Notes: generated by a model not told the origin, from the sequence alone. DNA of 64,000 nucleotides from Actinomycetota bacterium (GCA_035535495.1 DATLQA010000272.1:15452-79451), one strand, 5' to 3'. Counted from the first letter of the stretch, positions 34,189 through 58,344 are shown. Numbers and translations: made by a program.

Positions 34189-34644
34189 ATGCGTGTCTCA
34201 GCGAAGGCGGACTACGCCGTCCGCGCGGCGGTGGAGCTCGCCGCGGCCGGCCAGGGACCGGTCAAGGGCGACCGGATCGCCGAGGCCCAGGGCATCCCGC
34301 TCAAGTTCCTCGAGAACATCCTGGCCGAGCTCCGCCACGCCGGTCTGGTGCAGAGCCAGCGGGGCGCCGAGGGCGGCTACTGGCTGGCGCGGCCCGCCGA
34401 CCAGGTCACCGTCGCCGACATCATCCGGGTGGTGGACGGGCCGCTCGCCAACGTCCGCGGCGCCCGCCCCGAATCGATCCACTACCAGGGGCCCGCCAGC
34501 CACCTGCTCGACGTCTGGATCGCCGTCCGGGTCAGCCTCCGCAGCGTGCTGGAGCGGGTCACCCTCGCCGACCTGGTCGCCGGCACCCTGCCCAGCTCGG
34601 TCCGCGAGCTCACCGACGCCCCCGACGCGTGGGTGAGCAGGTAG
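34189..34644 (+). CDS. Rrf2 family transcriptional regulator (cysteine-free, CymR-like)
   Basis: ADYAVRA, FLENIL, SQRGAEGGYWLARP; no Cys ligands; divergent from the sulfate importer. Confidence 0.9.
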   Translation: MRVSAKADYAVRAAVELAAAGQGPVKGDRIAEAQGIPLKFLENILAELRHAGLVQSQRGAEGGYWLARPADQVTVADIIRVVDGPLANVRGARPESIHYQGPASHLLDVWIAVRVSLRSVLERVTLADLVAGTLPSSVRELTDAPDAWVSR

Positions 34645-34652
34645 GTTGATTG

Positions 34653-34716
34653 ATTCGGGGGGAGCCCGAGAACAGCTCCCCCCCGAACCCCCCCATCGGG
34701 GACCTAGGCGGGATCC
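34653..34716. repeat. REP-like palindromic repeat, family 1, copy 1
   Basis: ATTCGGGGGGAGC-CCGAGAACA-GCTCCCCCCCGAA followed by CCCCCCCATCGGGGACCTAGGCGGGATCC; near-identical copy at 44696-44759. Confidence 0.88.
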
Positions 34717-34722
34717 TCTAGG

Positions 34723-35541: not shown

Positions 35542-36251
35542 GTCCGCACCTCCACATCCAGGTGTCCCAACGCGGCCGGTGGGCCCTCCTCGACCAGCCG
35601 GCCGGCGCGGAGCGCCAGCACGTGGCCGGCGAGCCGGCGCACCTGGGCGGGGTCGTGACTGACCATCACCACCGTGTGCCCGCTGGCGAGCAGCTGGCCG
35701 AGGGCGCGCTCGATCGCGGCCGCGCTGGCCGGGTCGAGCGCGGCGGTGGGCTCGTCCAGCGCCAGCACCTCCGGCTCGCAGGCGAGCTGACGGGCGAGGC
35801 AGACCCGCTGCGCCTCACCGCCGGAGAGCACTGCCGTCCTCCGCTCCCCGAAACGCTCGGGCAGCCCGGCCACGGCCAGCAGGCTGCTGGCCTGCTCGGC
35901 GGTGAGGTCGGGCCGGCCGACGCGCAGTTCGTCGAGCACCCGCTCGCCGAGCAGCACGGGCTGCTGGGCGACCAGCCCGACGCGGCGGCGCAGCGCCAGC
36001 ACGTCCCACTCGGGCAACGGCCGCCCGTCAAGGAGCAGCCGGCCGGTGGTCGGCTCGGTCAGCCGGTTCAGCAGCCGCAGCAGGGTGGACTTGCCGGCGC
36101 CACTCGGCCCGACGACGGCGGTGAGGCGGCCGGCGGGGATGGTGGCGCTGACGCCGTCGAGCAGCCGCACCCCGCCGTGCACCACGCCGACCCGGTCGAG
36201 GACGAAGAGCGGCGCCCCCTGCCTCAGGTCAAGGAGCCGCACCGCCGCCAC
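35538..36251 (-). CDS. ABC transporter ATP-binding protein (FetA-like partner)
   Basis: [26 protein letters not shown]; ATGA overlap with the permease. Confidence 0.88.
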   Translation of the reverse strand: MAAVRLLDLRQGAPLFVLDRVGVVHGGVRLLDGVSATIPAGRLTAVVGPSGAGKSTLLRLLNRLTEPTTGRLLLDGRPLPEWDVLALRRRVGLVAQQPVLLGERVLDELRVGRPDLTAEQASSLLAVAGLPERFGERRTAVLSGGEAQRVCLARQLACEPEVLALDEPTAALDPASAAAIERALGQLLASGHTVVMVSHDPAQVRRLAGHVLALRAGRLVEEGPPAALGHLDVEVRT

Positions 36252-36252
36252 G

Positions 36253-36287
36253 CCTTCTCAGTCACCCTGCCTGCGGGGCAGTCTTAC
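36253..36287 (-). repeat. Dispersed repeat family 2 fragment (ACTGCCCCGCAGG motif)
   Basis: Minus strand TAAGACTGCCCCGCAGGCAGGGTGACTGAGAAGGC matches 58072-58106 with one mismatch. Confidence 0.88.
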
Positions 36288-39326: not shown

Positions 39327-40336
39327 CCACGCCGGACCAGCGTGCAGCCCGCCGTTGGCTGCGCGCCTGGCAGGCTTGCCGGCGCCTCCCCGAGCCGGTT
39401 GCGTTCGCCTTCGGCCGGCTCGGCGGGGTGGCCTGGTACCTGGCGGACCGTCGCCGCCGTGAGGCCCTCCGCGACAACCTGCGCCACGTCCTCGGACCAC
39501 AGACCAGCCCGTCCGCGCTCGAACGGGTGGTGCGGCGCGGCTTCGCCAGCTACGGGCGCTACTGGGTCGAGGCGTTCCGGCTCGAGGACCTGCCGCACGC
39601 CGAGGTGGTGCGGCGCATGGACTTCGACGGCCGCGAGCACCTCGACGGCGCCCTGGCCTCCGGCCGCGGGGTGATCTTCGCCGCGCCGCACCTCGGCAAC
39701 TGGGACTTCGGCGCGGCCTGGCTCGGGGTCAACGGCTACCCCGCGTCCGCGGTCGTCGAGCGGCTCCGCCCGGCGGCGCTGTTCGACCGCTTCGCCGCCT
39801 ACCGGCGCGCCCTCGGCATCGAGATCCTGCCGCTCGAGGACGGCTCGGAGACGCTCAGGGCCGTGCTCAGGGTGCTCCGCGGCGGCCGGCTCGCCCTGCT
39901 GGTCTGCGACCGCGACCTGACCGGCGGCGGCCTGCCGGTGACCATGTTCGGCGCGCCGACCACCCTGCCGGGCGGGCCGGCCTCGCTCGCCCTCAAGACC
40001 GGCGCGCTGGTGCTGCCGTGCGCGGTCTTCCAGGCCCGTCGGCGTGGCCGCTGGCTGGCCGTGTGCCGCCCGCCGCTGGAAGCCCGTCCGACCGGCGACG
40101 CGCGCGCCGACGCCGCCGACCTGACCACCCGGCTGGCGGCCGAGTTCGAGCTGCTGATCGCCCGCGCGCCCGAGCAGTGGCACGTGCTCAGCCGCTACTG
40201 GCGCCGACTGCCCCGCAGGGAGGGCGACCCTCACGGTGAGGCGGACGACTCGCGCCCTTGGTCCCAGCCCCACCGACTGCCCCGCGGAGAGGGCAGCCCG
40301 TCATCGCCCCCGGTGGACCGGGCGACCGCCTTCTGA
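39323..40336 (+). CDS. Phosphatidylinositol mannoside acyltransferase (PatA / lipid A acyltransferase family)
   Basis: SYGRYWVE, HLGNWDF, LVCDRD, PEQWH; sits between pgsA and pimA; C-terminal tail is repeat-derived. Confidence 0.88.
   Translation: MTTPDQRAARRWLRAWQACRRLPEPVAFAFGRLGGVAWYLADRRRREALRDNLRHVLGPQTSPSALERVVRRGFASYGRYWVEAFRLEDLPHAEVVRRMDFDGREHLDGALASGRGVIFAAPHLGNWDFGAAWLGVNGYPASAVVERLRPAALFDRFAAYRRALGIEILPLEDGSETLRAVLRVLRGGRLALLVCDRDLTGGGLPVTMFGAPTTLPGGPASLALKTGALVLPCAVFQARRRGRWLAVCRPPLEARPTGDARADAADLTTRLAAEFELLIARAPEQWHVLSRYWRRLPRREGDPHGEADDSRPWSQPHRLPRGEGSPSSPPVDRATAF
40206..40298 (+). repeat. Two family-2 repeat motifs inside the 3' end of the acyltransferase CDS
   Basis: GACTGCCCCGCAGGGAGGGCGAC at 40206 and GACTGCCCCGCGGAGAGGGCAGC at 40275, 69 bp apart and in frame. 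Confidence 0.7.
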
Positions 40337-42972: not shown

Positions 42973-44670
42973 GTGCGGAGACTCCTGCTTTGCGCGTTGG
43001 CGGCCATCGTCGCCGGCGCGCTCGCCACGCCGGTCGGCGCCGGCGCCCAGACGGGCTCGAGCGGACAGGCGGCCCAGCAGTCCACCGCCACCGAGTACGT
43101 CGTGCTCTACAAGAACGCCGCCTCGGCCACCGCCGCCAAGGACGCCATCAAGGCCGCGGGCGGCACCGTCCTGCGGGAGAACTCCGCCATCGGCATGGCC
43201 ACCGTGCGCGCCACCAGGGCCGACTTCATCACCGCCGTGAGCGGCAAGGCCGGCGTCGCCGGCGCGGCCCGCAACCGGGCCATCGGCCAGGCGCCGGACG
43301 ACGCCCTCAAGCCCGACGAGGTCGAGACCGAGAGCCTCAGGGCGGCGACCAACGCCGCCAAGGGCACGGCTGACGCGGCCGCCGTGAAGGGTGCCGAGCC
43401 GCTGGCCGCCCTGCAGTGGGGGATGCGCATGGTCAACGCCACCCCGAGCGGCTCCTACAAGGTCGACCAGGGCCGCCGCTCGGTGATGGTCGGGATCATG
43501 GACACCGGCGTCGACGGCAGCCACCCGGACATCGCCCCCAACTTCAACCGCGGGCTGAGCCGCAACTTCACCACCGACATCCCGCTGATCGACGGCGACT
43601 GCGCGACCGAGCCCGACCAGTCGTGCAACGACCCGGCCGACGTGGACGAGAACGGACACGGCACCCACGTGGCCGGCATCGTCGGCGCGGCCGTCAACGA
43701 CCTCGGCGTCGCCGGCGTGGCCCCCAAGGTCACCCTGGTCAACATCCGGGCCGGCCAGGATTCCGGCTTCTTCTTCCTGGACGCCACCGTCAACGCCATG
43801 GTCTATGCCGCCAAGGTGGGCATCGACGTGGTCAACATGAGCTTCTTCACCGACCCGTGGCTGTTCAACTGCGCCGCCAACCCGGCCGACTCGCCGCAGG
43901 AGCAGATCGAGCAGCGCACCGTCATCGCCGCCACCCAGCTGGCGGTGAACTTCGCCCGCAAGCGCGGCGTCACCTTCGTCGGCGCCTACGGCAACCAGCA
44001 CATCGACATCGGCAAGCCGACGACGGACGACACCAGCCCCGACTTCCCACCTAACGCCGCGAAGCACCGCGATATCGACAATTCCTGCCTGAGCGTGCCG
44101 ACCGAGACCGACGGCGTCATCTCGGTGACCGCGCTCGGCCCGAGCGGGCGCAAGGCCGACTACTCCACCTACGGCCTCGAGGGCGCCGACGTCGCCGCTC
44201 CCGGCGGCTGGTTCCGCGACTTCTTCGGCAGCCCGCAGTTCCAGCAGGTGCAGAACCAGATCCTGTCCACCTACCCCAAGACGCGCCTGCAGGAGCTGGG
44301 CCTGCTCGACCCCAACGGCGTCCCGCTCGTCCCCGACGTGGTGCGTGACTGCAACGGCGACGTCTGCGGGTACTACCGGTACCTGCAGGGCACCTCGATG
44401 GCGTCGCCCCACGCCGCCGGCGTGGCGGCCCTGGTGGTCAGCGCCAACGGGCACCGGGACAAGGGCGACCGTGGGCTCACCCTGAACCCGGACGCCACCG
44501 AGCGGATCCTCAAGGCGACCGCCGAGGACACGCCCTGCCCGACCCCGCCACTGCAGACCTACACCAGCGAGGGACGGCCGGCGGACTGGAACGCGCTCTG
44601 CGAGGGCACCCTGGAACGCAACGGCTTCTACGGCTTCGGCATCGTCGACGCCCTGGCCGCCGTGGGGTGA
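42973..44670 (+). CDS. Secreted subtilase (S8) with inhibitor-I9-like prodomain
   Basis: Signal peptide; catalytic triad motifs DTGVD, HGTHVAG, GTSMASPHAAG; AAGGAGG RBS. Confidence 0.94.
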   Translation: MRRLLLCALAAIVAGALATPVGAGAQTGSSGQAAQQSTATEYVVLYKNAASATAAKDAIKAAGGTVLRENSAIGMATVRATRADFITAVSGKAGVAGAARNRAIGQAPDDALKPDEVETESLRAATNAAKGTADAAAVKGAEPLAALQWGMRMVNATPSGSYKVDQGRRSVMVGIMDTGVDGSHPDIAPNFNRGLSRNFTTDIPLIDGDCATEPDQSCNDPADVDENGHGTHVAGIVGAAVNDLGVAGVAPKVTLVNIRAGQDSGFFFLDATVNAMVYAAKVGIDVVNMSFFTDPWLFNCAANPADSPQEQIEQRTVIAATQLAVNFARKRGVTFVGAYGNQHIDIGKPTTDDTSPDFPPNAAKHRDIDNSCLSVPTETDGVISVTALGPSGRKADYSTYGLEGADVAAPGGWFRDFFGSPQFQQVQNQILSTYPKTRLQELGLLDPNGVPLVPDVVRDCNGDVCGYYRYLQGTSMASPHAAGVAALVVSANGHRDKGDRGLTLNPDATERILKATAEDTPCPTPPLQTYTSEGRPADWNALCEGTLERNGFYGFGIVDALAAVG

Positions 44671-44672
44671 TG

Positions 44673-44759
44673 CATTCGGGGGGGAGCAGGTGACCCATTC
44701 GGGGGGGAGCCCGAGGCAGCTCCCCCCCGAACCCCCCATCGGGTACCTAGGCGGGATCC
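44673..44759. repeat. REP-like family 1, copy 2, with a duplicated left arm
   Basis: CATTCGGGGGGGAGC at 44673 and again at 44696, then CCGAGGCA-GCTCCCCCCCGAA-CCCCCCATCGGGTACCTAGGCGGGATCC. Confidence 0.88.
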
Positions 44760-44802
44760 CGTCGGTCGGCACCGCCCGGAGCGGGTCGCCGTTGCCGCCG
44801 CC

Positions 44803-44958
44803 GTCGCCCTGCCTGCGGGGCAGTTGGTTTCCTCCCTGACAGGGAGCCGGCACCACCGTCCGCAGCCGTCCGCCACGGCCCGGACCCTCGCCCCCGGGCC
44901 CCAGCACAACGAGCCGCCCGCCCCCAAGCCGTCACAGTCACCCTGCCTGCGGGGCAGT
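44803..44958 (-). mobile_element. ~155-bp element with direct terminal repeats (family 2, full copy A); putative non-autonomous element
   Basis: GTC(A/G)CCCTGCCTGCGGGGCAGT at 44803 and 44937; interior shares AGCACAACGAGCCGC and a GACAGG(G/A)AGCC-GCACCA block with the inverted copy at 58076-58230. Confidence 0.65.
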
Positions 44959-45056
44959 GGTAGCCTGAATCGTCGGAGAACTCCCCTGAGCACGGAAAAC
45001 GGCGTCGTATGAGCCCTGCCCGGCGGGAGCCGGGAGGGGCGGAGGTGCACCCTGGC

Positions 45057-45947
45057 ATGAGCTCGACGAACCACGCGACCGGGACCGGCCGGGTCAAGCG
45101 CGGCCTGGCCGAGAACCTGAAGGGCGGCGTCATCATGGACGTCGTCACCCCTGAGCACGCCAAGATCGCCGAGGACGCCGGCGCGGTCGCCGTGATGGCC
45201 CTGGAGCGCGTCCCCGCCGACATCCGCGTGCAGGGGGGCGTCGCCCGGATGAGCGACCCGGCGCTGGTCGAGCAGATCATGCACGCGGTCAGCATCCCGG
45301 TGATGGCCAAGGCCCGCATCGGGCACTTCGTCGAGGCCCAGGTGCTCGAGGCGCTCGGGGTCGACTACGTCGACGAGTCCGAGGTGCTCTCGCCGGCCGA
45401 CGAGGAGCACCACGTCGACAAGTGGCGCTTCACCGTGCCGTTCGTCTGCGGCGCCACCAACCTCGGCGAGGCGCTGCGCCGCATCAGCGAGGGCGCGGCG
45501 ATGATCCGCTCCAAGGGCGAGGCCGGCACCGGCAACGTGATCGAGGCGGTGCGCCACATGCGCGCCATCACCGGCGCCGTCCGCCGCCTCGCCGGGCTGG
45601 ACGAGGCCGAGCTGTACGCCGCCGCCAAGGACCTCCGCGCCCCCTACGAGCTGGTCGCCGAGGTCGCCAAGGACGGCCGCCTGCCGGTGGTGCTGTTCAC
45701 CGCCGGCGGCATCGCCACCCCGGCCGACGCCGCACTGATGATGCAGCTCGGCGCGGACGGGGTGTTCGTCGGGTCGGGGATCTTCAAGTCCGGCGACCCG
45801 GCCAGGCGTGCCAGGGCGATCGTCGAGGCGACCACCTTCTACAACGACCCGGCGATCATCGCGAAGGTCTCCCGCGGGCTGGGCGAGCCGATGGTCGGCA
45901 TCGCCAGCGTGCCCGAAGGCGAGCGGCTGGCCGTCCGCGGCTGGTAG
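45057..45947 (+). CDS. pdxS: Pyridoxal 5'-phosphate synthase lyase subunit
   Basis: [53 protein letters not shown]. Confidence 0.97.
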
Positions 45948-45952
45948 GCGCC

Positions 45953-46543
45953 GTGGCCGGCCCGCCCGTCATCGGCGTCCTGGCGTTCCAGGGCGACGTC
46001 CGCGAGCACCTGGCCACCCTGGCGGAGGTCGGGGTCCCCGGCCGCCCGGTGCGCACCCTCGCCGAGCTGGACGAGGTCGACGGGCTGATCCTGCCCGGCG
46101 GGGAGTCCACCGTGATCGGCAAGCTGGCGCGCCGCTACGGGCTCCTCGAGCCGCTGCGCGAGCGCGCCCGCGGCGGGCTGCCGGTGTTCGGCACCTGCGC
46201 CGGCCTGATCTTCATGGCCCGCGAGGTCGACGGCCCGCCCCAGCACCTGCTCGGCGTGCTCGACGTGCGCGTGCGCCGCAACGCGTTCGGGCGGCAGGTC
46301 GCCTCGTTCGAGGCCGAGGTCGACGTCAAGGGGCTCGACGGCGGCCCCGTCTCGGCGGTGTTCATCCGCGCCCCCTGGGTCACCGAGATGGCCCCTGAGG
46401 TCGAGGTGCTGGCCGAGGTGGACGGCGCGGTGGTCGCCGTCCGCCAGGGCAACCTGCTGGGGACCGCCTTCCATCCCGAGCTGGCCGGCGAGGGGCGCCT
46501 CCACCGCCTGTTCGCCGAGCTGGCCCGCGACCGGGGCGGGTAG
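45953..46543 (+). CDS. pdxT: Pyridoxal 5'-phosphate synthase glutaminase subunit
   Basis: [37 protein letters not shown]. Confidence 0.96.
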
Positions 46544-46586
46544 CCGCCGGCCGGGCCGCGCACGAGCCGAGCTGAAGGGAGCGAGC

Positions 46587-47336
46587 ATGTCCGGCCACTC
46601 CAAGTGGGCCACGATCAAGCACCAGAAGGCGGCCAACGACGCCCGCCGCGGCAAGCTGTTCGCCAAGCTGATCCGCGCTATCGAGGTGGCCGCGCGGACC
46701 GGCGGCAGCAACGTCGACGGCAACCCCACCCTGGCCGACGCCATCCAGAAGGCCAAGGACGCCTCGGTCCCCAACGACACCATCGACCGCGCCACCAAGC
46801 GCGGAGCGGGGGAGCTCAAGGGGCCGCCGCCCGACTTCGTGACCTACGAGGGCTACGCCCCCGGCGGGGTGGCCGTGCTGGTCGAGACGCTGACCGACAA
46901 CCGCAACCGCACCGCGTCCGACGTCCGCCGGGCGTTCTCCAAGGCGAGCGGGAGCATGGCCGACGCCGGCAGCGTCGCCTACCTGTTCAGCCGCAAGGGC
47001 CAGCTGGTGATCCCCGGCGGCGCCGCCGACGAGGACCGGGTGATGGAGCTCGCCCTCGAGGCCGGGGCCGAGGACATCCAGGCCGGCGACGACGGCTTCA
47101 CCGTCACCACCGTCGCCGGCGACCTCCGCGCCGTCAGGGCCGCCTTCGACCGCGCCGGCGTCGCCTACGAGTCGGCCGAGGTCACCATGGTGCCGAGCCT
47201 GTCCGTGCCGCTCGACCGGGACACCGCCATCAAGGTCCTGCGCCTGGTCGACGCGCTCGAAGAGCTCGACGACGTCCAGGACGTGTACGCCAACTTCGAC
47301 ATCCCCGATGCGGTCATGGCGGAGATGACGACCTGA
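46587..47336 (+). CDS. yebC: YebC/PmpR family protein
   Basis: [39 protein letters not shown]. Confidence 0.96.
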
Positions 47337-47378
47337 GCCTGCTGCTCGGCGCCGCGCCGCGGCGCCGGCGAGTCGCCG

Positions 47379-47459
47379 TCAGATGCGGCGGCGGCCCAGG
47401 ATGAACATCACCAGGGCGATGATGGCGAGCACGATCAGGATGATCAGCAGCGTCCGCAC
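47379..47459 (-). CDS. 26-aa single-TM small protein (M)RTLLIILIVLAIIALVMFILGRRRI
   Basis: GAGGGGG RBS before GTG, 20 consecutive hydrophobic residues, basic tail, GC3-rich codons. Confidence 0.7.
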   Translation of the reverse strand: MRTLLIILIVLAIIALVMFILGRRRI

Positions 47460-47528
47460 TGGGTCCCCCTCTGTCGTCGTTGGCCACCTGGTACCCCGGC
47501 CGGCCGCCCGCCACACCGCCGCGCGTGG

Positions 47529-47557
47529 TTGAGCCGGTCGCCTGGAACCGGTAGGCT
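47529..47557 (+). promoter_or_regulatory. Putative sigmaA promoter for ruvCAB
   Basis: TTGAGC-N17-TAGGCT upstream of ruvC. Confidence 0.55.
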
Positions 47558-47564
47558 GCTGCCG

Positions 47565-47580
47565 CCAAACAGGTGTTCGA
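47565..47580. promoter_or_regulatory. LexA SOS box (Gram-positive/actinobacterial type)
   Basis: CCAAACAGGTGTTCGA versus consensus TCGAAC-N4-GTTCGA; just downstream of the -10 box and upstream of ruvC, a known SOS gene. Confidence 0.7.
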
Positions 47581-47606
47581 GCCGGTGTTTGAGATGGGGA
47601 GGCCGG

Positions 47607-48203
47607 ATGCGCGTCGTCGGGGTCGACCCGGGACTCGGCCGCTGCGGCTACGCCGTGGTCGACCAGGGCGCCGGCCGGCCCGAGGCGGTGACCTACGACA
47701 CCATCGCCAGCCAGGGAGAGGAGGTCGCCCCTCGGCTCGCCCACCTCGCCGAGCGGTTCCGCGCCGTGGTGGAAGCCACCCGGCCGGACTGCCTGGCGAT
47801 CGAGCGCCTGTTCGTCAACGCCAACGTGCGCACCGCGATGGCGGTCGGCCAGGCCTCGGGGGTGATCCTGCTGATCGCCGCCGAGCACGGCATGCCGGTC
47901 ACCTCCTACACCCCCTCACAGGTCAAACGGACCATGGTCGGCGTCGGCACCGCCCCGAAGGAGCAGGTCGCCTACATGGTCCGCGCCACCCTCGGGCTGG
48001 CCGCCACACCGACCCCGGCCGACACCGCCGACGCCCTCGCGGTCGCCCTCTGCCACCTCCACCACCTCGGCGTCAGCGCCGCCACCGGCCCAGGCGGGCG
48101 CGCCGCCGCGATCGGCGCCGCGCCGACCGCCGGCTGGCTGGCCAGGGCGGCGCCGACCTCGCCCGGCCTGGACCGGCCGGCCCGGGGTGGTGGCCGGCGG
48201 TGA
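47607..48203 (+). CDS. ruvC: Crossover junction endodeoxyribonuclease
   Basis: VVGVDPGLGRCGY, AIERLF, VGQASGV, KEQV, DTADALAVALCH. Confidence 0.95.
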   Translation: MRVVGVDPGLGRCGYAVVDQGAGRPEAVTYDTIASQGEEVAPRLAHLAERFRAVVEATRPDCLAIERLFVNANVRTAMAVGQASGVILLIAAEHGMPVTSYTPSQVKRTMVGVGTAPKEQVAYMVRATLGLAATPTPADTADALAVALCHLHHLGVSAATGPGGRAAAIGAAPTAGWLARAAPTSPGLDRPARGGGRR

Positions 48204-48802
48204 TCGCCAGCCTCCGCGGCCGCCTGGCCGCGCTCCTGCCCGACGGGGTGGTGATCGAGGTCGGCGGCGTCGGCTACCGCGTCTTCCTCACTCCCAAGGC
48301 GCTGGCCGCGCTGCCGCGCGAGGGCGAGGTGCAGGTCCACACGGTCACCTACGTGCGCGAGGACACCCTGGCGCTGTACGGCTTCCCGACCCCCGACGAG
48401 CAGGCGGCGTTCGAGCGCCTGCTCAGCGCGAGCGGTGTCGGGCCCAAGCTGGCGCTGGCGATCCTGTCGGTGCACTCGCCCGACGCGTTGCGCCGGGCGG
48501 TCACCGCCGGCGACGCCGACGCCTTCACCCTGGTCTCCGGCGTCGGCCGCAAGGGCGCCGCCCGCCTGGTCCTCGAACTCAAGGGCAAGCTCGGCGACGG
48601 CCCGGTCGAGATCCCGGCCGAGGCCGGCGTCCGGCCCGCCTACGCCGACGTGCGCGAGGCGCTCGGCGCCCTCGGCTACGGGCCCGCCGAGGTCAAGGCG
48701 GCCCTGGAGACGCTGCCGCCCGACGCCGGCGAGCTGCCCACCGAGGAGCTGCTCCGGCTCGCGCTGCGCACGCTCGCCGGCGCCGGCCGCGCGGGCCGGT
48801 GA
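48200..48802 (+). CDS. ruvA: Holliday junction branch migration protein
   Basis: IASLRG, EVGGVGY, LYGF, SGVGPKLAL, VSGVGRKGAARL, ALGALGY. Confidence 0.95.
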   Translation: MIASLRGRLAALLPDGVVIEVGGVGYRVFLTPKALAALPREGEVQVHTVTYVREDTLALYGFPTPDEQAAFERLLSASGVGPKLALAILSVHSPDALRRAVTAGDADAFTLVSGVGRKGAARLVLELKGKLGDGPVEIPAEAGVRPAYADVREALGALGYGPAEVKAALETLPPDAGELPTEELLRLALRTLAGAGRAGR

Positions 48803-48843
48803 TGAGGCTGGCACCACCGCCTCGGGTCGCCGCGGTGGCCGCG

Positions 48844-48865
48844 GTCGCCCTGCCCGCGGGGCGTC
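48844..48865 (-). repeat. Degenerate family-2 motif in the ruvA-ruvB gap
   Basis: GTCGCCCTGCCCGCGGGGCGTC versus GTCGCCCTGCCTGCGGGGCAGT. Confidence 0.5.
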
Positions 48866-48926
48866 TGAGCACTCCCCTTGCCGGGCCGACGACCGGTAGG
48901 CTCCTCGGGGAAGGGGGGTCGACGCC

Positions 48927-49958
<1,032 letters not shown>

Positions 49959-49978
49959 TGCCGGCCGGCGACGCGCCG

Positions 49979-50128
49979 CTACTCGAGCGAGGCGTCGATC
50001 GCCGCCAGGACGTCCTCGATGTCCTGCAGCAGCCGGGCCGCGTCCACGCCGACGGCCTCGACGCTCTGGGCGTCGGGTCCTGCCTGGCGCCGGCGACGTG
50101 CCTGGCGCCTGATCCGCACCGCCACCAT
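49979..50128 (-). CDS. 49-aa small protein with Pup-like helix
   Basis: AGGAGGAG RBS 5 nt before ATG; MVAVRIRRQARRRRQAGPDAQSVEAVGVDAARLLQDIEDVLAAIDASLE. Confidence 0.7.
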   Translation of the reverse strand: MVAVRIRRQARRRRQAGPDAQSVEAVGVDAARLLQDIEDVLAAIDASLE

Positions 50129-50456
50129 GCGACTCCTCCTGTGCTCGGCTCGCTGGCGTCGCCACCCTGGTTCCACAGGGCATTCGATCGGCGGTGCCAT
50201 CCGGTCTGGCAGGACTTCAGGGGACCATCGCGGCGTAGTTCTATCGAACTAGTACACAGCGGTGCAAGTGGTGCCCGGTCAGCCGCGTCGAAAACCTCGT
50301 TCGACCCCCCATGGGCGGTTGCGCTCCGGCCAGGGCATTCATAGGATGGCGGCTGCGCCGCGGCCCCAGCCGTGGCCTGCCCTCGTGCAACGCGGCCGAT
50401 CACGCCGTGATGCGCCGTCCCGGGCACTCCCCGGGCCTCCCGGAGGTCTTCACGCC

Positions 50457-50792
50457 ATGTCCAACGAAGGTGCGTCGTTCATCTTCATTGCGCTGATGTT
50501 CGGCTTCTTCTACTTCCTCATCATCAGGCCGCAACGCCGGCGCATGACCGACCTCCAGTCGCTGCAGCGGTCGCTCGAGCTGGGCGACGAGGTGGTCACG
50601 ATCGGCGGCATCCTCGGCACCATCCGCCGCTTCGACGGCGACATCGTCACCCTCGAGCTGTCGCCAGGGACCGAGGCGCGCGTCAACCGCCGCGCCATCT
50701 CCGCCCGCGTCGACAGCGCCGTGCCCGCCGCCGAGGAGCCGGGCGTGATCGCCGACGGCGCCGAGATCGACCAGGAGCGGGCCAAGGAATGA
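50457..50792 (+). CDS. yajC: Preprotein translocase subunit
   Basis: FFYFLIIRPQRRR, LELGDEVVTIGGILG, RRAI. Confidence 0.92.
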   Translation: MSNEGASFIFIALMFGFFYFLIIRPQRRRMTDLQSLQRSLELGDEVVTIGGILGTIRRFDGDIVTLELSPGTEARVNRRAISARVDSAVPAAEEPGVIADGAEIDQERAKE

Positions 50793-51484
50793 GCGTGGCC
50801 GAGCGCCGCCCACCAGGCGGCGAACTGCGGCTCCTCGACCAGGTCGCAGGCACCAAGGTCGTCCAGACCTACATCGCCCTCGCCGACCAGTTCACCGGTC
50901 AGCTCGGCTTCACCGAGCACGGCTTCCGGCACGCCAACCTGGTCGGGCACATCGCCTACAACATCCTCGCCCGGCTCGGCCACGAGTCGCGCGTGGCGGA
51001 GCTGGCCGCCGTCGCCGGCTACCTGCACGACATCGGCAACGTCGTCAGCCGCCAGAACCACCCGCAGAGCTCGGCGCTGATCGCCATGCCGGTGCTCACC
51101 GAGCTGGGCCTGCCGGTGGAGGACATCGGCCTGATCGTCGGGGCGATCGGCAACCACGAGGAGGAGCTCGGCCGGCCCGTCTCCCCGGTCTCGGCGGCGG
51201 TCAACATCGCCGACAAGTCGGACGTGCACCGGTCCCGGGTCCGCAAGGACGCGCGGGTCGAGTTCGACATCCACGACCGGGTGAACTACGCGGTGCGCCA
51301 CTCGTTCGTCCGGGTCGACGCCGAGCAACGGACCGTCACCCTCGAGCTCGACATCGACACCACCGTGTCCGACATCCTCGAATACTTCGAGATCTTCCTG
51401 ACCCGGATGATGATGTGCCGCCGGGCCGCCGAGGGTCTCGACTGCAAGTTCCGCATGACCGTCAACGGCAGCTCCCTGTTGTAG
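50789..51484 (+). CDS. HD-domain metal-dependent phosphohydrolase
   Basis: EHGFRHA, AGYLHDIGN, AIGNH, IADKSDVHRSRVR, HDRVNYAV. Confidence 0.88.
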   Translation: MSVAERRPPGGELRLLDQVAGTKVVQTYIALADQFTGQLGFTEHGFRHANLVGHIAYNILARLGHESRVAELAAVAGYLHDIGNVVSRQNHPQSSALIAMPVLTELGLPVEDIGLIVGAIGNHEEELGRPVSPVSAAVNIADKSDVHRSRVRKDARVEFDIHDRVNYAVRHSFVRVDAEQRTVTLELDIDTTVSDILEYFEIFLTRMMMCRRAAEGLDCKFRMTVNGSSLL

Positions 51485-51489
51485 GGCGG

Positions 51490-51706
51490 TGAGGTACCGT
51501 TGGTGGCAAGGACCAGCCCACCTCGGCGGCCGCGAGCGCACCAGCGAGGTGGGCCGCCGCCGCGCGTCGGCTGCACTGAAGATGTAGCGAGGTGGCCGGA
51601 GCCGCGCGCTGGCTGGACTGAGGAGCGACGAAGGAGCCGCAGGCGACGACGGCGCGACGAGGGAAGCCAGCGCACCGAGCGGCGTAGGCCACCGAGCGTT
51701 TCAATA
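51490..51706. other. Highly structured intergenic element upstream of secD (MITE-like or cis-RNA)
   Basis: 10-bp stem GCCCACCTCG/CGAGGTGGGC (51516-51554); nested stems GGTGGCC/GGCCACC (51591/51687) and GCGCTGGCT/AGCCAGCGC (51606/51665) enclosing GA-rich loops. Confidence 0.55.
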
Positions 51707-51723
51707 GAGGAGAACCGCGCCCG

Positions 51724-53175
51724 ATGACAGGAACCCGCCGACTGGTCGTCCCGCTACTCGTCGTGCTCGCCCTGGTCGGCGGGATCTGGGGAGTGATCCT
51801 GGTCCAGGGGATCAAGCCCCGCCTCGGCCTCGACCTCACCGGGGGCACCAGCGTCACCTTCGAGCCGCACAGCCCGGACGGCCGCGACCCGACCGAGGAC
51901 CAGCTCAACACCACCATCGACATCATCCGCAACCGGGTGAACTCCAAAGGCGTGGCCGAGTCGGAGGTCAACCTCGAGGGCGGCAGCATCGTGGTGTCGA
52001 TCCCCAACGTGAAGAACCCCGACGAGGTGCTCAAGGCGGTCGGGACCACCGCGCAGCTCCGCTTCCGGCCAGTGCTGCAGGAGGTCGTCTCCAGCGCCCC
52101 CGAGTACAAGAAGGCGCCGTTCGCCGCGGTCGACTGCAGCAATGCGGCGACCTGGAAGGACGAGATCAACAAGGAGGCCATCCTCTGCGCCCGCGAGCCG
52201 GGCCAGGACCGGCCCGACCCCAACGCGCCCAAGCTGCTCATGGGCCCGGTGGCCCTGGGCGGCACCGACATCGCCGGGGCCACCGCCCAGCTCGCCACCT
52301 CGGGGCAGAACGCGATCACCACCGGCGCCTGGGAGACGGCGCTGCGCCTCTCCGGCCAGGGAGGCAGGAAGTTCGCCGAGATCACCGGCAAGCTCGCGTG
52401 CAACCCGAGCGGCGACCCCAAGCGGCGCCTCGGCGTCACCCTGGACGCGGTGGTGATCAACTCGCCGCCGATGGCCGACGACGTGCAGTGCAACCAGGGC
52501 ATCGTGGGCGGCAGCGCGGTGATCACCGGCCAGACCGAGGCCGAGGCCAAGGCGCTGGCGCCGCTGATCACCACCGGCGCCCTGCCGCTCTCGCTGGTGG
52601 TGCTGAACCGCACCACGGTCAGCGCCACCCTCGGGGCCGACTCGCTCCACGCCGGCCTGATCGGCGGCGCGCTCGGGGTGGCGGCGGTCTTCCTGTACAT
52701 GCTGTTCTTCTACCGCGGCCTCGGGCTGGTCGCCTGTGTCGGCCTGGCGATCGCGGGGGCTTTCAACTTCGGCATCGTCATCCTGATGGGCAAGCTGATC
52801 GGCTTCACCCTGACGATGGCCGGGATCGCCGGCCTGATCGTGGCGGTCGGCATCTCGGCCGACTCCTACGTGGTCTTCTTCGAGCGCCTCAAAGACGAGG
52901 TCCGCGACGGCAAGACGTTGCGGGCCTCGGTCGACCGGGGCTGGGCACGCTCGTTCCACACCCTGGTCTCGGCCAACACGGTGTCGTTCGCGGCGGCGCT
53001 CGTGCTCTACCTGCTCGCCATCGGCCCGGTGCGCGGCTTCGCCTTCACCCTGGGCCTGGCCACCGCCGTCGACTTCTTCACCGCCTGGATGTTCGGGCGC
53101 CCGGCGGTCAGCCTGTTCGCCCGGACACGGCTGCTCCGTGAGGGGCGGCTCGCCGGCATCCGGGCCGCGATCTAG
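51724..53175 (+). CDS. secD: Protein translocase subunit SecD
   Basis: PRLGLDLTGG, IIRNRVNSKGVAE, GALPL, TMAGIAGLIVAVGISADSYVVFFERLKDE, VRGFA. Confidence 0.95.
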   Translation: MTGTRRLVVPLLVVLALVGGIWGVILVQGIKPRLGLDLTGGTSVTFEPHSPDGRDPTEDQLNTTIDIIRNRVNSKGVAESEVNLEGGSIVVSIPNVKNPDEVLKAVGTTAQLRFRPVLQEVVSSAPEYKKAPFAAVDCSNAATWKDEINKEAILCAREPGQDRPDPNAPKLLMGPVALGGTDIAGATAQLATSGQNAITTGAWETALRLSGQGGRKFAEITGKLACNPSGDPKRRLGVTLDAVVINSPPMADDVQCNQGIVGGSAVITGQTEAEAKALAPLITTGALPLSLVVLNRTTVSATLGADSLHAGLIGGALGVAAVFLYMLFFYRGLGLVACVGLAIAGAFNFGIVILMGKLIGFTLTMAGIAGLIVAVGISADSYVVFFERLKDEVRDGKTLRASVDRGWARSFHTLVSANTVSFAAALVLYLLAIGPVRGFAFTLGLATAVDFFTAWMFGRPAVSLFARTRLLREGRLAGIRAAI

Positions 53176-53198
53176 GGCCTCAAGGGAGGATCCGTTCC

Positions 53199-54470
53199 GT
53201 GCCATCCATCGCCAGCCGCCTCTACCACGGCGACATCAGCGTCGACTACGTCGGCCAGTGGCGCCGCTGGGCCGTGCTGTCCGGCGTGGTCCTGCTGATC
53301 TCGCTGGTCTCCCTGTTCGTGCCCGGCCTGACGTTCGGCATCGACTTCAAGGGCGGGTCGGTGTTCCGGGCCGAGGCCACCAAGCCGGTCACCGAGTCCC
53401 AGGTCCGCGCCGCCGTCGGCAACGACGTGGCCAAGGTCGTCCAGCTCACCGACACCCGGCCGGTGCAGGTGATCGTCCAGACCGAGGAGCTCTCCGCCGA
53501 TCAGGTGGCCGAGATCCGCGCCGAGCTGGCGCGGGTCACCGGAGCCGAGCAGGTCTCCAACGAGAGCGTCGGCTCCAAGTGGGGGAGCACGGTCTCGCGC
53601 AAGGCGCTGATCGCCCTGGCCGTGTTCATCGGCGTGGTGATCGTCTACGTGTCGCTGCGCTTCGAGTTCAAGATGGCCGTGGCCGCCCTGGTGGCGCTCG
53701 CCCACGACCTGCTCATCACCGCCGGCGTCTACGCGCTCGCCCGCTTCGAGGTCACCCCGGCGACGGTGATCGCCCTGCTGACCATCCTCGGGTACTCCCT
53801 GTACGACACGGTGGTGGTGTTCGACAAGGTGCGCGAGAACACCGCCGAGCTGTCCTCCATGTCGCGGATCACCTACTCGGACGCGGCCAACAAGGCCGTC
53901 AACCAGACCCTGATCCGCTCGCTCAACACCTCCCTGGCCAGCCTCCTGCCGATCGCGGCCCTGCTGTTCGTCGGCGCCTTCGCGCTCGGGGCCGAGACGC
54001 TCAAGGACCTCTCGCTCGCCCTGCTGATCGGCGTGGTCGTCAGCACCTACTCCTCGATCTTCGTCGCCACCCCGTTCCTGGCGGTCTGGAAGGAGACCGA
54101 GCCGCGCAACCGGCAGCTCCGCGCGCGTGCCGCCAGGCAGCCGGCCCCCGCCGGCGCCCGCGCCACGGGCAGGGCCGCCGTGCCGGCCGACCGCCAGGCC
54201 CAGCCCCGCCCGGCCGGCGGCCGCCGCCGGCCCGCCGCCCAGCCCGTGCTCGACGGCGAGGAGGCGATGCCGATGCCGGCGGTGCCGCCCGACCCGGTCG
54301 AGGCCGACGAGCCCGATGAGGCCGAGCCGGCCGACACCGCGCCGGTCGCCGCCCAGTCCAACGCCGGTTCCAAGCCACGTTCCGGGCAGCAGAAGCCGAG
54401 GTCGTCGCAGGCGCGCCGCAAGCCGTCGGGGCGGCAGCCGTCCCGGCCGGCCAAGCGGCGCCGCCGCTAG
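53199..54470 (+). CDS. secF: Protein translocase subunit SecF
   Basis: FGIDFKGG, VGSKWG, LRFEFK, HDLLIT, GYSLYDTVVVFDKVRE, RSLNTS; low-complexity C-tail. Confidence 0.95.
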   Translation: MPSIASRLYHGDISVDYVGQWRRWAVLSGVVLLISLVSLFVPGLTFGIDFKGGSVFRAEATKPVTESQVRAAVGNDVAKVVQLTDTRPVQVIVQTEELSADQVAEIRAELARVTGAEQVSNESVGSKWGSTVSRKALIALAVFIGVVIVYVSLRFEFKMAVAALVALAHDLLITAGVYALARFEVTPATVIALLTILGYSLYDTVVVFDKVRENTAELSSMSRITYSDAANKAVNQTLIRSLNTSLASLLPIAALLFVGAFALGAETLKDLSLALLIGVVVSTYSSIFVATPFLAVWKETEPRNRQLRARAARQPAPAGARATGRAAVPADRQAQPRPAGGRRRPAAQPVLDGEEAMPMPAVPPDPVEADEPDEAEPADTAPVAAQSNAGSKPRSGQQKPRSSQARRKPSGRQPSRPAKRRRR

Positions 54471-54507
54471 CCCCGGCGCCGTCCGCCACCAAAGAAGGGA
54501 ACGCACC

Positions 54508-55035
54508 GTGCCGAACGACATCAACCGGGTGCGCAGCCTGGTCCGCGACGTCCCCGACTTCCCCAAGCCCGGGATCGTCTTCAAGGACATCACCCCGCTG
54601 CTCGCCGACGAGGTCGCCTTCTCGTCGGTGATCGACGAGACCGTGGTCCACTTCGGCCGCGGCAACGTCGACAAGGTGGTCGGCATCGAGGCACGCGGCT
54701 TCATCCTCGCCTCCCCGGTCGCCTACCACTTCGGCGCCGGCTTCGTGCCGGTCCGCAAGGCCGGCAAGCTGCCATGGAAGGTGGAGGCGGAGGAGTACGA
54801 GCTGGAGTACGGCTCCGCCGCCCTGGAGCTGCACAGCGACGCCATCGCCTCGGGCGAGCGCGTGCTGATCGTCGACGACGTGCTCGCCACCGGCGGCACC
54901 GCCCGGGCCGCCGCCAGGCTGGTCGAGCGCCTCGGCGGCAAGGTGATCGGCATCGCCACCCTGATCGAGCTGAGCTTCCTCGACGGTCGCAAGCGGATCG
55001 AGGGCTACGAGTTCTTCAGCCTGCTGCGCTACTGA
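54508..55035 (+). CDS. apt: Adenine phosphoribosyltransferase
   Basis: VPDFPKPGIVFKDITPLL, IEARGF, VRKAGKLP, IVDDVLATGGT. Confidence 0.96.
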   Translation: MPNDINRVRSLVRDVPDFPKPGIVFKDITPLLADEVAFSSVIDETVVHFGRGNVDKVVGIEARGFILASPVAYHFGAGFVPVRKAGKLPWKVEAEEYELEYGSAALELHSDAIASGERVLIVDDVLATGGTARAAARLVERLGGKVIGIATLIELSFLDGRKRIEGYEFFSLLRY

Positions 55036-55270
55036 GGCGGCCGTCGCCGCCTGCCCGAACGCAAACGGGCAGGTGAGCGCCTGCTACCGGCAGGAGCCAC
55101 CCGTCTCGCTGAGTGGCGACGACAGGCGTACCGTGGTTTCCTGGAGCGCCGGGGAAGGGACCGGTGGCGGGGGGCGCGACGCTGACCGCGATCCGCGCGG
55201 CCATCATCCGAGCCGGCGTGCCCGACCGGGCGCTCCACAGCGAGGCAGCTGGCACGACGGGTGAGCGGCC

Positions 55271-57619
55271 ATGGCAGAGCAGCAACCAGCGGCGGGACCC
55301 CGGGGGCTCACGGTCGACGGTGAGCAGTCCGGGTTTCCCAGCGTGCCCGCGGACGCCGAGAGCGACGCCGACGGCGGGATGGCGGCCGCGCTCACCAGGC
55401 CGTACGACACGGCGCCGCCGCCGGAGCCCGACATCGAGCCGCTGCTGCGCCGCCTGAAGCACCGCAACCCCAGGGCGGACCTGGCGCTGGTGCGCCGCGC
55501 CTGGGAGGTCGCCAAGGCCAAGCACGACGGCCAGCTGCGCTCCTCCGGCCAGGCGTTCATCGCCCACCCGCTCGCCGTCGCCAACATCGTCGCCGACCTC
55601 GGCATGGACGCCATCAGCGTGGTCGCCGCCCTGCTGCACGACACCGTCGAGGACACCTCCATGACCATCGAAGAGGTCGAGCAGCAGTTCGGCGTGGAGG
55701 TGGCCCGGATCACCGACGGGCTCACCAAGCTGGAGCGGATGGGCTTCGAGACCCGCGAGGCGGCCCAGGCGGAGACCATCCGCAAGATGGTCATCGCCAT
55801 GGCCCGCGACATCCGCGTGCTGGTGATCAAGCTCGCCGACCGGCTGTCGAACATGCGCGACCTCGGCTACAAGGGACGCGAGAGCCAGGAGCGCACCGCC
55901 CGCGAGACGCTCGACATCTACGGCCCGCTGGCCAACCGCCTCGGCATCCACCAGATCAAGTGGGAGCTCGAGGACCTGGCGTTCGCGACCCTGTACCCCA
56001 AGCGGTACGAGGAGATCGTGCGGATGACGGCCGAGCGGCAGCCGGCCCGCGAGACCTACATCACCGAGGTCATCGAGCAGATCAACGCCCAGCTCCGCGC
56101 CGTGAGGCTACGGGCGGAGGTGACCGGCAGGCCGAAGCACTACTACTCCATCTACGAGAAGATGGTGCTGCGCGGCAAGGAGTTCTCCGACATCTTCGAC
56201 CTGGTCGGCGTGCGCATCACCGTCGACTCGATCAAGGACTGCTACGCCGCGCTCGGGCAGGTCCACGCGCTCTGGAAGCCGGTGCCGGGGCGCTTCAAGG
56301 ACTACATCGCGATGCCCAAGTTCAACCTCTACCAGTCGTTGCACACCACCGTGGTGGGGCCGGGCGGCAAGCCGCTCGAGATCCAGATCCGCACCAAGGT
56401 GATGCACCAGACGGCCGAGTACGGCATCGCCGCCCACTGGCGCTACAAGGACAAGGGCAAGGACGGCCGCGCCTCGACCGACGACATGGGCTGGCTGCGC
56501 CAGCTGATCGACTGGCAGCGGGAGCTGTCCGACCCCAAGGACTTCATCGAGAACCTCAAGACCGACCTGTACGTCGACGAGGTCTTCGTGTTCACCCCCA
56601 AGGGCGACGTGATCCAGCTCCCGGCGGGGGCGACCCCGATCGACTTCGCCTACGCGGTCCACACCGAGGTCGGCCACCGCTGCGTCGGCGCCCGCGTCAA
56701 CAAGCGGCTGGTCCCGCTCGAGTACGCCCTGCAGAACGGCGACACCGTCGAGGTGTTCACCTCCAAGGCGCGCAACGCCGGCCCGTCGCGGGACTGGCTG
56801 TCGATCGTCAAGACCCCGCGGGCGCGCAACAAGATCCGCCAGTGGTTTTCCAAGGAGCGCCGCGAGGACGCCATCGAGGCGGGCAAGGACGCGCTGGTGC
56901 GGGCGATGCGCAAGGCCGGCCTGCCGCTGCAGCGCCTGACCCAGGGCGGGACCCTGGCGGCGGTCGCCTCGGAGATGCGCTTCACCGGCCTGGACGCGCT
57001 CTACGCGGCGGTCGGCTCCGGGCAGACCTCGGCCGCCGCGGTGGTGACCCGCCTGCAGGCCGACCTCGGCGCGGAGGAGCAGGAGGACGACGACGACTTC
57101 GCGCTGGAGCGGGCGGTGCGCCCGGCCCGGCCGCTGCCGTCCAGCCGTGGCGTGGTGGTCAAGGGCGTCGACGACGTCTGGATCAAGCTGGCGCGATGCT
57201 GCACCCCGGTGCCGCGCGACCCGATCATCGGCTTCGTCACCAGGGGGCACGGCGTCAGCGTCCACCGGGCCGACTGTCCCAACGCCGGCGACCTGGGCCG
57301 CCACGCCAACCGGCTGCTGGAGGTCGAGTGGGACACCTCCGGGCCGTCGTCGTTCGCGGTCACCATCCAGGTCGAGGCGCTGGACCGGACCAAGCTGCTG
57401 CGCGACATCACCGAGGTGCTCTCCGACCATCACGTCAACATCGTCTCGGCGACCGTGGCCACCGGCAGGGACCGGGTCGCGACCCTGCGCTTCACCTTCG
57501 AGCTGGCGGAGATCTCCCATCTCGCCCACGTGCTGTCGAGCGTGAAGAAGGTCGAGGGCGTGTTCGACGCCTTCCGGGTGGTGCCGCACGGGCAGCAGCA
57601 ACCGGTCGCGGGGAGCTGA
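55271..57619 (+). CDS. relA: Bifunctional (p)ppGpp synthetase/hydrolase Rel
   Basis: HD motif [40 protein letters not shown] (TPIDFAY), ACT domain. Confidence 0.97.
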
Positions 57620-57624
57620 CCGGT

Positions 57625-58074
57625 CTGCGCGCGGTGGTGTCCCGGGTCGCCTGGGCCCGTGTGGTGGTCGCCCACCAGGTCATCGGGGAGATCGGGCCTG
57701 GGCTGCTGACCCTGGTCGGGGTCGGGCGCGACGACGGCCCCGCCGAGGCCGCCTGGCTCGCCGACAAGCTGGCGGGCCTCCGCGTGTTCGAGGATGACCA
57801 CGGCGTGCCCAACCGCGACGTGGTCGAGGCCGGTGGCGGGGTCCTGGTGGTCAGCCAGTTCACCCTGTACGGCGACGCCCGCAGGGGCCGCCGCCCCTCC
57901 TACCTGGCGGCGGCACGCCCGGAGGAGGCCGCCACCCTGGTGGAGGCCGTCGGCGACGCCCTCGCCGCCCGTGGCCTGGCCGTCGGCCGGGGCCGCTTCG
58001 GCGCCGTCATGCGGGTCGAGTCCGCCGGCGACGGGCCGTTCACCATCCTGCTCGACAGCGACCGGACGTTCTAA
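57625..58074 (+). CDS. dtd: D-aminoacyl-tRNA deacylase (apparent CTG start)
   Basis: (M)RAVVSRV, GLLTLVGV, KLAGLRVF, VVSQFTLYGD, GRRPS, FGAVM, DGPFT. Confidence 0.92.
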   Translation: MRAVVSRVAWARVVVAHQVIGEIGPGLLTLVGVGRDDGPAEAAWLADKLAGLRVFEDDHGVPNRDVVEAGGGVLVVSQFTLYGDARRGRRPSYLAAARPEEAATLVEAVGDALAARGLAVGRGRFGAVMRVESAGDGPFTILLDSDRTF

Positions 58075-58075
58075 G

Positions 58076-58230
58076 ACTGCCCCGCAGGGAGGGTGACTGA
58101 GAAGGCTCCGCGGCGGCGCGGCTCGTTGTGCTCGGGCTGGAGGGCGACGTCACGGTGGTGGGCGCACGGAGGACCATGGTGCTGGCTTCCTGTCCGGGAC
58201 GAACTACGACTGCCCCGCAGGTGGGGCGAC
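58076..58230 (+). mobile_element. ~155-bp element with direct terminal repeats (family 2, full copy B)
   Basis: ACTGCCCCGCAGG(G/T)-GGG(T/C)GAC at 58076 and 58209; interior homologous to the reverse complement of 44803-44958. Confidence 0.65.
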
Positions 58231-58344
58231 TCGGACGGATGGCGGGCGGCTCGCTCCTGCTCGGCATTGACAAACCTGCACCCGCAACTATGGTCGAAGC
58301 TTCGTGAGGACCGGGTCGCTCCCGGATCGGAAGTGAGCTAGGTC

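Follow-up and report, generated by a model that had tools for sequence, protein, structure and literature searches.

A genus-restricted mosaic repeat of soil actinomycetes, with interchangeable bodies and a conserved 22-bp site close to stop codons

The mycobacterial interspersed repetitive units (MIRUs) were reportedly described by Supply et al. in 1997 as actinobacterial units of 40-130 bp that lie between genes in direct, head-to-tail order, share the orientation of their flanking genes and contain small open reading frames (ORFs) overlapping the neighbouring stop and start codons; no way of spreading is known for them. The spread of families that lack a transposase (CGTC-REPs, NIMEs, MIRUs) is an open question in general, and the small dispersed repeats of high-GC actinomycetes are poorly catalogued. 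In the NIMEs (neisserial intergenic mosaic elements), 20-bp dRS3 sites separate more than 100 families of RS units of ~50-150 bp (PMC1797815). The repeat family described here comes from a window (i.e. the whole stretch of DNA analysed, 64,000 nucleotides, C272:15452-79451) in the genome of an Actinomycetota bacterium, a metagenome-assembled genome (MAG) of 4.5 Mb in 315 contigs that is 94% complete (G000). It is a non-coding repeat family restricted to one genus of uncultured soil actinomycetes, and the best-supported reading is that of a lineage-specific mosaic repeat of the REP/BIME-NIME-MIRU kind, in architecture most like the Neisseria NIMEs. Judged by the evidence so far, the family adds a new lineage-specific variant to elements of a kind already known, and it involves no new principle. 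Nevertheless, it offers a clean case for the study of such families, with a sharply conserved site, interchangeable bodies and many differences between sister species, to which a statistically strong link to stop codons and the remodelling of protein C-termini may be added.

In the window, which has a G+C content of 72-75%, the family is represented by two full copies, copy 1 at 44803-44958 on the forward strand and copy 2 at 58076-58230 on the reverse strand, which align from end to end with a mean column identity of 87%. Both are bounded by direct repeats of 22 bp, GTCGCCCTGCCTGCGGGGCAGT and GTCACCCTGCCTGCGGGGCAGT in copy 1 (spacing 134 bp) and GTCGCCCCACCTGCGGGGCAGT and GTCACCCTCCCTGCGGGGCAGT in copy 2 (spacing 133 bp), and the 15-mer AGCACAACGAGCCGC has two occurrences in the window, one per copy, versus 0.04 expected. 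A search for the 18-mer CCCTGCCTGCGGGGCAGT with up to three mismatches gives seven matches in the window (at 36265, 40207, 40276, 44807, 44941, 58076 and 58209) versus 0.34 expected, a number that none of 100 shuffles reaches, and an eighth motif copy, which is degenerate, lies at 48844-48864. The first-pass annotation of this DNA had described the two full copies, their direct 22-bp ends and the shared 15-mer, every detail of which is borne out, and its count of eight motif copies is reproduced as well. The absence of a conserved ORF also holds, since the unit lengths fall into all three classes modulo 3 (10/8/6) and no codon periodicity was found, which rejects a coding unit. In general, its description of an uncatalogued repeat family that has direct rather than inverted ends and solo motifs, and is in this respect unlike classic MITEs (transposable elements that are miniature and have inverted repeats), agrees with the present analysis. 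The boundaries of the supposed 155-bp unit, on the other hand, were mis-drawn, as what was taken for the left 'terminal repeat' normally forms the 3' end of another kind of unit that comes before.

The family is modular, i.e. it consists of units with a body and a 3' site that stand alone or are arranged head to tail, and a 'full element' is an L-type unit placed immediately after another unit's site. A full copy's left site runs on into bodies of the A, B or C type: in copy 1 a hairpin module, an A unit and the L unit follow each other, while in copy 2 a C unit precedes the L unit. The 3' site shared by the units consists of (A)GTCG, five variable bases and the invariant block CCTGCGGGGCAGT, usually followed by CGT, and is the best conserved part of the full copies. 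The L body, of about 112-115 bp, carries the blocks GGCACCACGGTCC, CAGCCGCCCGCCAC and CAACGAGCCGC (in copy 1, GGCACCACCGTCC and AGCACAACGAGCCGC are found as blocks of the L-type unit), and the B body corresponds to the 3' part of L. The A body (~65 bp) usually stands behind a separate G7/C7 hairpin module, the C body measures ~45 bp, and the rare D body has inverted ends of 10 bp (CCGGGGGGCT/AGCCCCCCGG), whereas no terminal inverted repeats were found in L, A, B and C units. A skeleton of the form ..GAGCCG..CCGCC.., ~10 nt, ..GTCG is common to all body types, and chimeric bodies, in which a 5' part of L is joined to a C-type tail, are present at C105:5303, C249:14157 and C182:11249; there are at least five body types, which recombine. 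The left boundary of the units is variable, and the variable 25 nt past the left site form small hairpins in some copies, in no common register. With 43% C and 30% G on the forward strand the unit is strand-asymmetric and not palindromic, and pairing in the core is limited to CTGC/GCAG (4 bp) inside the invariant block. On the 3' side, the site is in many copies followed by CGT(A/C)G, on the opposite side of the stem from that in the published tagged REP families (PMC3733652), and its 3' flank is very often T(C/T)AG or TAG.

The 18-mer has 41 exact copies in the G000 assembly and 127 with up to three mismatches, and the 13-mer core (CCTGCGGGGCAGT, up to one mismatch) gives 108 matches in 77 clusters, of which ~10 matches are chance occurrences within genes, leaving ~100 family sites in ~75 arrays. 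Further full-length copies exist across the genome: an nhmmer profile finds 27 in all, in addition to ~30 shorter matches, the latter all terminating at one and the same 3' position of the model. All of the motif pairs spaced 130-139 bp apart are direct (24/24), and only ~4 inverted pairs exist. A genome of the same genus (G001) contains a comparable population, while the other 39 relatives searched yield only weak matches of chance quality, and a scan of 185,579 species genomes (596 Gb) with a degenerate pattern returned, outside the same-genus MAG, only scattered single matches such as chance would produce. A phage origin was considered on account of two exact 18-mer matches in viral contigs and rejected, as both are chance matches (the first lies in an AT-rich phage, the second in a coding region). 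The pairwise identity of the full copies ranges from 52 to 88% with a median of 70%, and the family is therefore old, rather than the product of a recent burst.

Units have been gained and lost since the two species split, which follows from the synteny between G000 and G001 (genes 81-92% identical, i.e. species that are ~15% diverged). The L unit of copy 1 is absent at the orthologous site in G001, where homology restarts at 44959 (GTAGCCTGAA), and copy 2 is likewise absent at its orthologous site, with the position of the stop codon unchanged. At the latter locus the distance from the stop codon to the promoter amounts to 30 nt in G001 versus ~190 nt of repeat in G000, the repeat array occupying the space between the upstream stop codon and a TTGACA box. 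This box is part of a TTGACA-N16-TATGGT sequence (58267-58294) that is kept in G001, lies upstream of a gene starting near 58345/58471 and is likely a sigma-70-type promoter. Elsewhere, a whole site-body-site block of G000 (C16) is missing from G001 as one piece, a B+L array (C105) is also missing there, and in the reverse direction four copies of G001 (L001, L012, L038 and L044) are absent from G000, of which L038 is a clean in-frame insertion of 114 nt inside a conserved gene. A target duplication is not visible in any of eight filled/empty comparisons, the junctions of which are not resolved to the base at ~15% divergence.

Often it is the whole spacer that differs between the two species, which looks like replacement rather than simple insertion. 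Three gene ends carry a unit of the family in both species, compared to ~0.16 such overlaps predicted by chance. In two syntenic pairs (C234/L046 and C149/L166) the site is found at the same gene end with unrelated bodies, in a third (C9/L034) the same gene pair flanks units that differ in their offset, and in a fourth (C116/L165) the arrays differ in unit content, G001 having a D-type copy without a site where G000 has C+L units. In the one clear case of an orthologous full copy (C276/L036), the site cores are identical at 25 of 26 positions versus 56% identity for the body (P = 6e-6), so that the site is kept in place, either by selection or by repeated conversion, while the bodies turn over.

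Arrays are found in tandem, convergent and divergent spacers (40/11/12) in the same proportions as the spacers themselves, and in tandem contexts 22 are oriented sense and 18 antisense. Where a site end faces a stop codon, 20 of 28 are at most 6 nt away (with a linker of 0 to 6 nt from stop codon to site), compared to 7.7 expected for random placement in the spacer, and a value of 20 is not reached in any of 100,000 simulations (P < 1e-5). The same pattern is seen in G001 (~8 of 24 terminal sites), and sense-oriented arrays also start at the stop codon of the gene upstream, but the point of the body at which they start varies. In the window, the 3' end of the L unit of copy 2 is 1 nt away from the TAA stop (58072-58074) of the upstream forward-strand gene, and the site at 36265-36282 is 1 nt away from the TAA stop of the reverse-strand gene at 36284-38374. 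The stop codons themselves are unusual too: TAA accounts for 7 of 25 site-adjacent stops in G000 (28%) versus 3.1% genome-wide, a 9-fold enrichment (P = 8e-6), and CTAA for 5 of 25 versus 0.7%, while in the orthologous pair at 58072 the filled locus of G000 has TAA and the empty one of G001 has TGA. Translated units form the end or an internal part of several proteins. D-type units lie inside ORFs on the sense strand at C248:17417 and C31:11413 in G000 and at L038:1540-1655 in G001, and translation uses the same frame of the site in two of the three proteins that were checked (A-L-P-A-G-Q in L038 and G-L-P-A-G-Q in C31). A sequence preference for T(C/T)AG together with selection explains only part of the link to stop codons, given that sites of this kind are seldom used where there is no true stop.

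Following these results, we give about an even chance to the reading of this family as a genus-restricted, non-coding, non-autonomous mosaic repeat, of which the conserved site anchors the addition, exchange and loss of units. The site would then be a cis-acting DNA sequence, and we infer that units could be added, swapped and deleted there by site-anchored recombination or by template switching between dispersed copies, as has been proposed for the Neisseria dRS3/NIME arrays. The agent might be a recombinase, or else the general machinery of recombination and replication. Through recombination between two direct sites the L body would be lost and a solo site left behind, and loss of the interior in this way, which had been proposed from the outset as excision between the ends, is a reasonable source of some of the solos. 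Several points weigh against this reading. The C16 block is absent from G001 without a resident site being present there, for which a transposon that brings both repeats with it is at least as good a fit as an insertion beside an existing site, and at the given divergence a target duplication of 1-3 bp could be missed. No recombinase or transposase is tied to the site, the IS110, TnpB and tyrosine/serine recombinase genes of G000 neither adjoining it nor sitting in it, although both genomes are fragmented MAGs, so that a mobilising gene could be unassembled. Moreover, a site-anchored model by itself leaves the proximity to stop codons (0-6 nt) and the enrichment of TAA unexplained, and the full copies are old, with a maximum identity of 88%, so that no recent event has been caught.

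The most serious rival is a classical non-autonomous transposon with direct ends, i.e. a site-body-site block (and separately the shorter units) that is cut or copied by a transposase encoded elsewhere, unassembled or lost, with a preference for sequences at or beside stop codons (T-N-A-like) and with selection purging the insertions within genes. We consider it rather unlikely as a whole, and it stays serious because of the C16 block, which is missing from G001 with both of its repeats at once, and the clean intragenic insertion in L038. The inverted ends of the D-type units would also agree with it, as would the site being the best conserved part (as is the case for cis-acting transposon ends), the frequent T(C/T)AG or TAG in the 3' flank and the 9-fold excess of TAA stops. 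However, no target duplication is seen at the empty sites, inverted ends are absent from the L, A, B and C units, TTAG and TCAG that are not at true stops are rarely used (a sequence preference alone thus fails to explain the adjacency), and the conservation of the site after speciation in the orthologous copy is unexpected for a dead transposon end. In addition, no linked transposase was found in two genomes that are 94-100% complete, nor was a recombinase, HUH or IS gene flanked by the same ends, which the first-pass annotation had led one to look for, found in G000. The single TnpB gene of G000 has unrelated flanks and ends, the IS110 copies of G000 have a different target and are not inserted in the 22-bp site, and none of the tyrosine/serine recombinase genes of G000 lies within ~5.4 kb of a site. 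In profile searches, Y1 (PF01797), Y2 (PF04986) and reverse transcriptase (PF00078) were absent from G000 and G001, the last of which also speaks against retro-copying. The Y1 search was positive in six control genomes, and also in 6 of the 21 genomes that it covered, all of them without the repeat family; Y1_Tnp was found in five other family-level relatives lacking the element, Y2_Tnp in one distant genome of the same phylum, and reverse transcriptase in relatives without the repeat. The same absences bear on hairpin-guided mobility of the HUH type (an IS200/IS605-type PATE or a REP mobilised by a RAYT), which the first-pass annotation had put forward together with a repeated structured RNA. 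Direct-repeat ends that hold a mini-hairpin on the same strand, as in IS200/IS605 ends, the lack of a target duplication and the CGTAG or CGTCG that often follows the motif (reminiscent of GTAG/CGTC-tagged REPs, PMC3733652) would all be in line with HUH mobility, but besides the missing transposases and the unrelated ends of the only TnpB, the stem, which lies in an invariant block, measures just 4 bp versus 8-13 bp in REPs (PMC3733652). For a structured RNA the evidence is equally unfavourable. No Rfam match was obtained at the gathering score in the 64-kb window, and none at E<=10 over the element, the best E-value over 44600-45100 being 0.45 and belonging solely to the adjacent hairpin. With 26 full copies as input, the RNAalifold energies are -10.8 and -11.2 kcal/mol on the two strands, with no helix beyond the pairing of the two repeats, and the minimum free energy z-scores of the window copies against shuffles (+2.2/+0.2 and +0.4/-0.5) indicate that none is significantly stable; the copies also occur in both orientations relative to genes and some are translated. 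HUH mobility and structured RNA are therefore largely refuted, and we regard them as very improbable.

It is also conceivable, though distinctly unlikely in our estimate, that the host selects the site as a signal at gene 3' ends. The near-palindromic core CTGC-GGG-GCAG might then be a protein-binding DNA site or a small RNA hairpin, with a possible role in the protection of transcript ends, in the control of ribosomes or termination past the stop codon, or as a gyrase or nucleoid-protein site as in REP/BIME, and the bodies would be passengers spread by ectopic recombination. The conservation of the site in place while the body decays would be accounted for in this way, as would the clustering of stop-facing site ends within 6 nt and its recurrence in G001, the identical position of the stop codon in filled and empty orthologues, and the ability of the core hairpin to form on either strand. 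On the other hand, the orientation relative to neighbouring genes is random, 12 arrays stand in divergent spacers, the hairpin is only 4-5 bp long and has no U-tract, and one orthologous site, at 40276 inside an ORF tail, has decayed in G001. More doubtful still is the idea that the 22-bp site serves for attachment in a site-specific exchange system of a sort not yet described, by which short non-coding cassettes would be inserted, swapped and deleted right after stop codons, integron-like for the 3' flanks of genes. If true, such a system would explain why the same gene ends have the site with different bodies in the two species, why the placement is so exact (0-6 nt from stop codons) and why the stops are shifted in favour of TAA.

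Table 1. Units, sites and modules of the repeat family in the 64-kb window (positions counted from the first nucleotide of the window).
Feature	Position	Strand	Remarks
Conserved 22-bp site, left repeat of copy 1	44803..44824	+	Also 3' end of the preceding A-type unit
L-type unit of copy 1	44825..44958	+	C-rich body of ~112 bp and 22-bp 3' site (44937-44958)
A-type unit (GGCACCGC..GGAGCGGGTCG..GCCGTCG and site)	44761..44824	+	Genome cluster of 13 A-type units
G7/C7 hairpin module, separate repeat family	44696..44760	+	~25 nt 3' of the TGA at 44668-44670
L-type unit of copy 2	58076..58208	-	Body and 3' site (58076-58097)
C-type unit (GCAGGAGCGAGCCGCCCGCCATCCGTCCGAGTCG and site 58209-58230)	58209..58266	-	Source of the 'left repeat' of copy 2
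Short unit, 5'-shortened L/B-type	36200..36282	+	3' site 36265-36282; nhmmer model positions 75-156
Short unit in the 3' tail of ORF 39428-40336 (+), read antisense	40207..40270	-	Retained at the orthologous locus of G001
Second short unit in the tail of ORF 39428-40336	40276..40335	-	Site with 3 mismatches; site decayed in G001
Degenerate C/A-type unit	48806..48864	+	Site GTCGCCCTGCCCGCGGGGCGT; begins 3 nt past the TGA stop at 48800-48802

The G7/C7 module (Table 1) is a perfect hairpin, TTCGGGGGGGAGC-N8-GCTCCCCCCCGAA, and is preceded by a partial copy of itself at 44675-44695. It belongs to a dispersed family that also has copies in G001 and precedes an A-type unit in at least eight loci of G000, where the composite of hairpin, A unit and L unit is recurrent; in several other loci the module begins directly at a stop codon. 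A different repeat of ~128 bp, at 51585-51712 in the window, has more than 40 copies with 80-90% identity in G001 and is probably the 'Family 1' of the first-pass annotation. Inverted sites 57-58 bp apart at C102:43436-43510 and C183:24-100 of G000 give rise to a long hairpin with arms of ~26 nt. Two IS110 copies of G000 (C134:950-2380 and C17:13820-15256), which are 82% identical, have the left flank GCTCATTGGT(C/G)CACCCT in common, which points to these copies having their own specific target, one that has nothing to do with the repeat.

On the reverse strand, G000 has genes for an ABC-type ATPase (35538-36251) and for a permease (34723-35541) that are missing at the corresponding syntenic place in G001. 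These two genes, in the interval 34634-36275, directly adjoin the site at 36265, and three further differences in gene content between G000 and G001 also have a site at one junction. Gene cassettes were considered and rejected, the extra G000 DNA beside sites consisting of ordinary genes, with no mobile-element genes. Other candidates were likewise set aside. A remnant of a group II intron was considered, as GAGCCG resembles the start of domain V, but there is no pairing partner and no Rfam match; a tRNA-like 3' end (GAAGCCGGCACCA) lacks the folding of T-arm and acceptor stem; and a motif-like sequence by smpB and an integrase fragment on C156 represents the usual context of tmRNA integration. 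From a practical point of view, the repeats break MAG assemblies and create spurious ORF extensions in annotation. Several MAG contigs end inside arrays of the family, and the contigs of public soil metagenomes in Logan break at the repeats, where the joints derive from other copies, so that they provide no usable empty sites.

Of the elements described so far, DDE-transposon MITEs differ in their terminal inverted repeats, which here only the rare D type has (10-bp ends). For a PATE of the IS200/IS605 type a TnpA (Y1) acting in trans is missing and the lone TnpB of G000 has unrelated flanks. A PATE has a fixed target of 4-5 nt at its left end, on the 5' side, and makes no duplication; in the present family no duplication is seen, with a variable left boundary and a linker of 0 to 6 nt from stop codon to site. 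With Rickettsia palindromic elements (RPEs) and other small repeats found in frame inside genes (PMC3733652, PMC2759123) it shares that some copies are in frame and translated, as in the L038 insertion, the D-type copies that read ..ALPAGQ.. and the protein tails encoded by units; RPEs are, however, palindromic and mostly intragenic, while the present units are mostly intergenic. The likeness to REPs and BIMEs (PMC2817692, PMC3733652) extends to short, GC-rich, extragenic repeats of high copy number, in mosaic arrays near the 3' ends of genes and sometimes within genes, and perhaps to the CGT(A/C)G tag after the site. Instead of an imperfect palindrome of 20-40 bp with a stem of 5-13 bp, though, the family has a stem of 4 bp, is strand-asymmetric and is no more stable than shuffled sequences, its pairs are direct (24/24) rather than head-to-head, and neither G000 nor G001 has a RAYT (Y1 HUH). 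Like MIRUs, the units touch the stop codon of the upstream gene and fall into length classes that are related by deletions, but their orientation is random (22 sense, 18 antisense) and they have no ORF (10/8/6 modulo 3).

The NIMEs are the closest match, as analogues of which the present family is not a member. Its site (GTCG-N5-CCTGCGGGGCAGT) has no similarity to dRS3 (ATTCCCN8GGGAAT), is asymmetric and always direct, and abuts stop codons with its end; the arrays are short, with 1-3 units each, the bodies are mutually related, and the IS110-type enzyme that uses dRS3 has no visible counterpart, the IS110 copies of G000 not being located in the site. What the two have in common is that a short site with an inverted-repeat core separates several families of non-coding units (here 40-115 bp) in arrays, that these are confined to one genus and have no known dedicated transposase, and that syntenic arrays vary in unit content between related genomes, as is the case here for C234/L046, C149/L166, C9/L034 and C116/L165.

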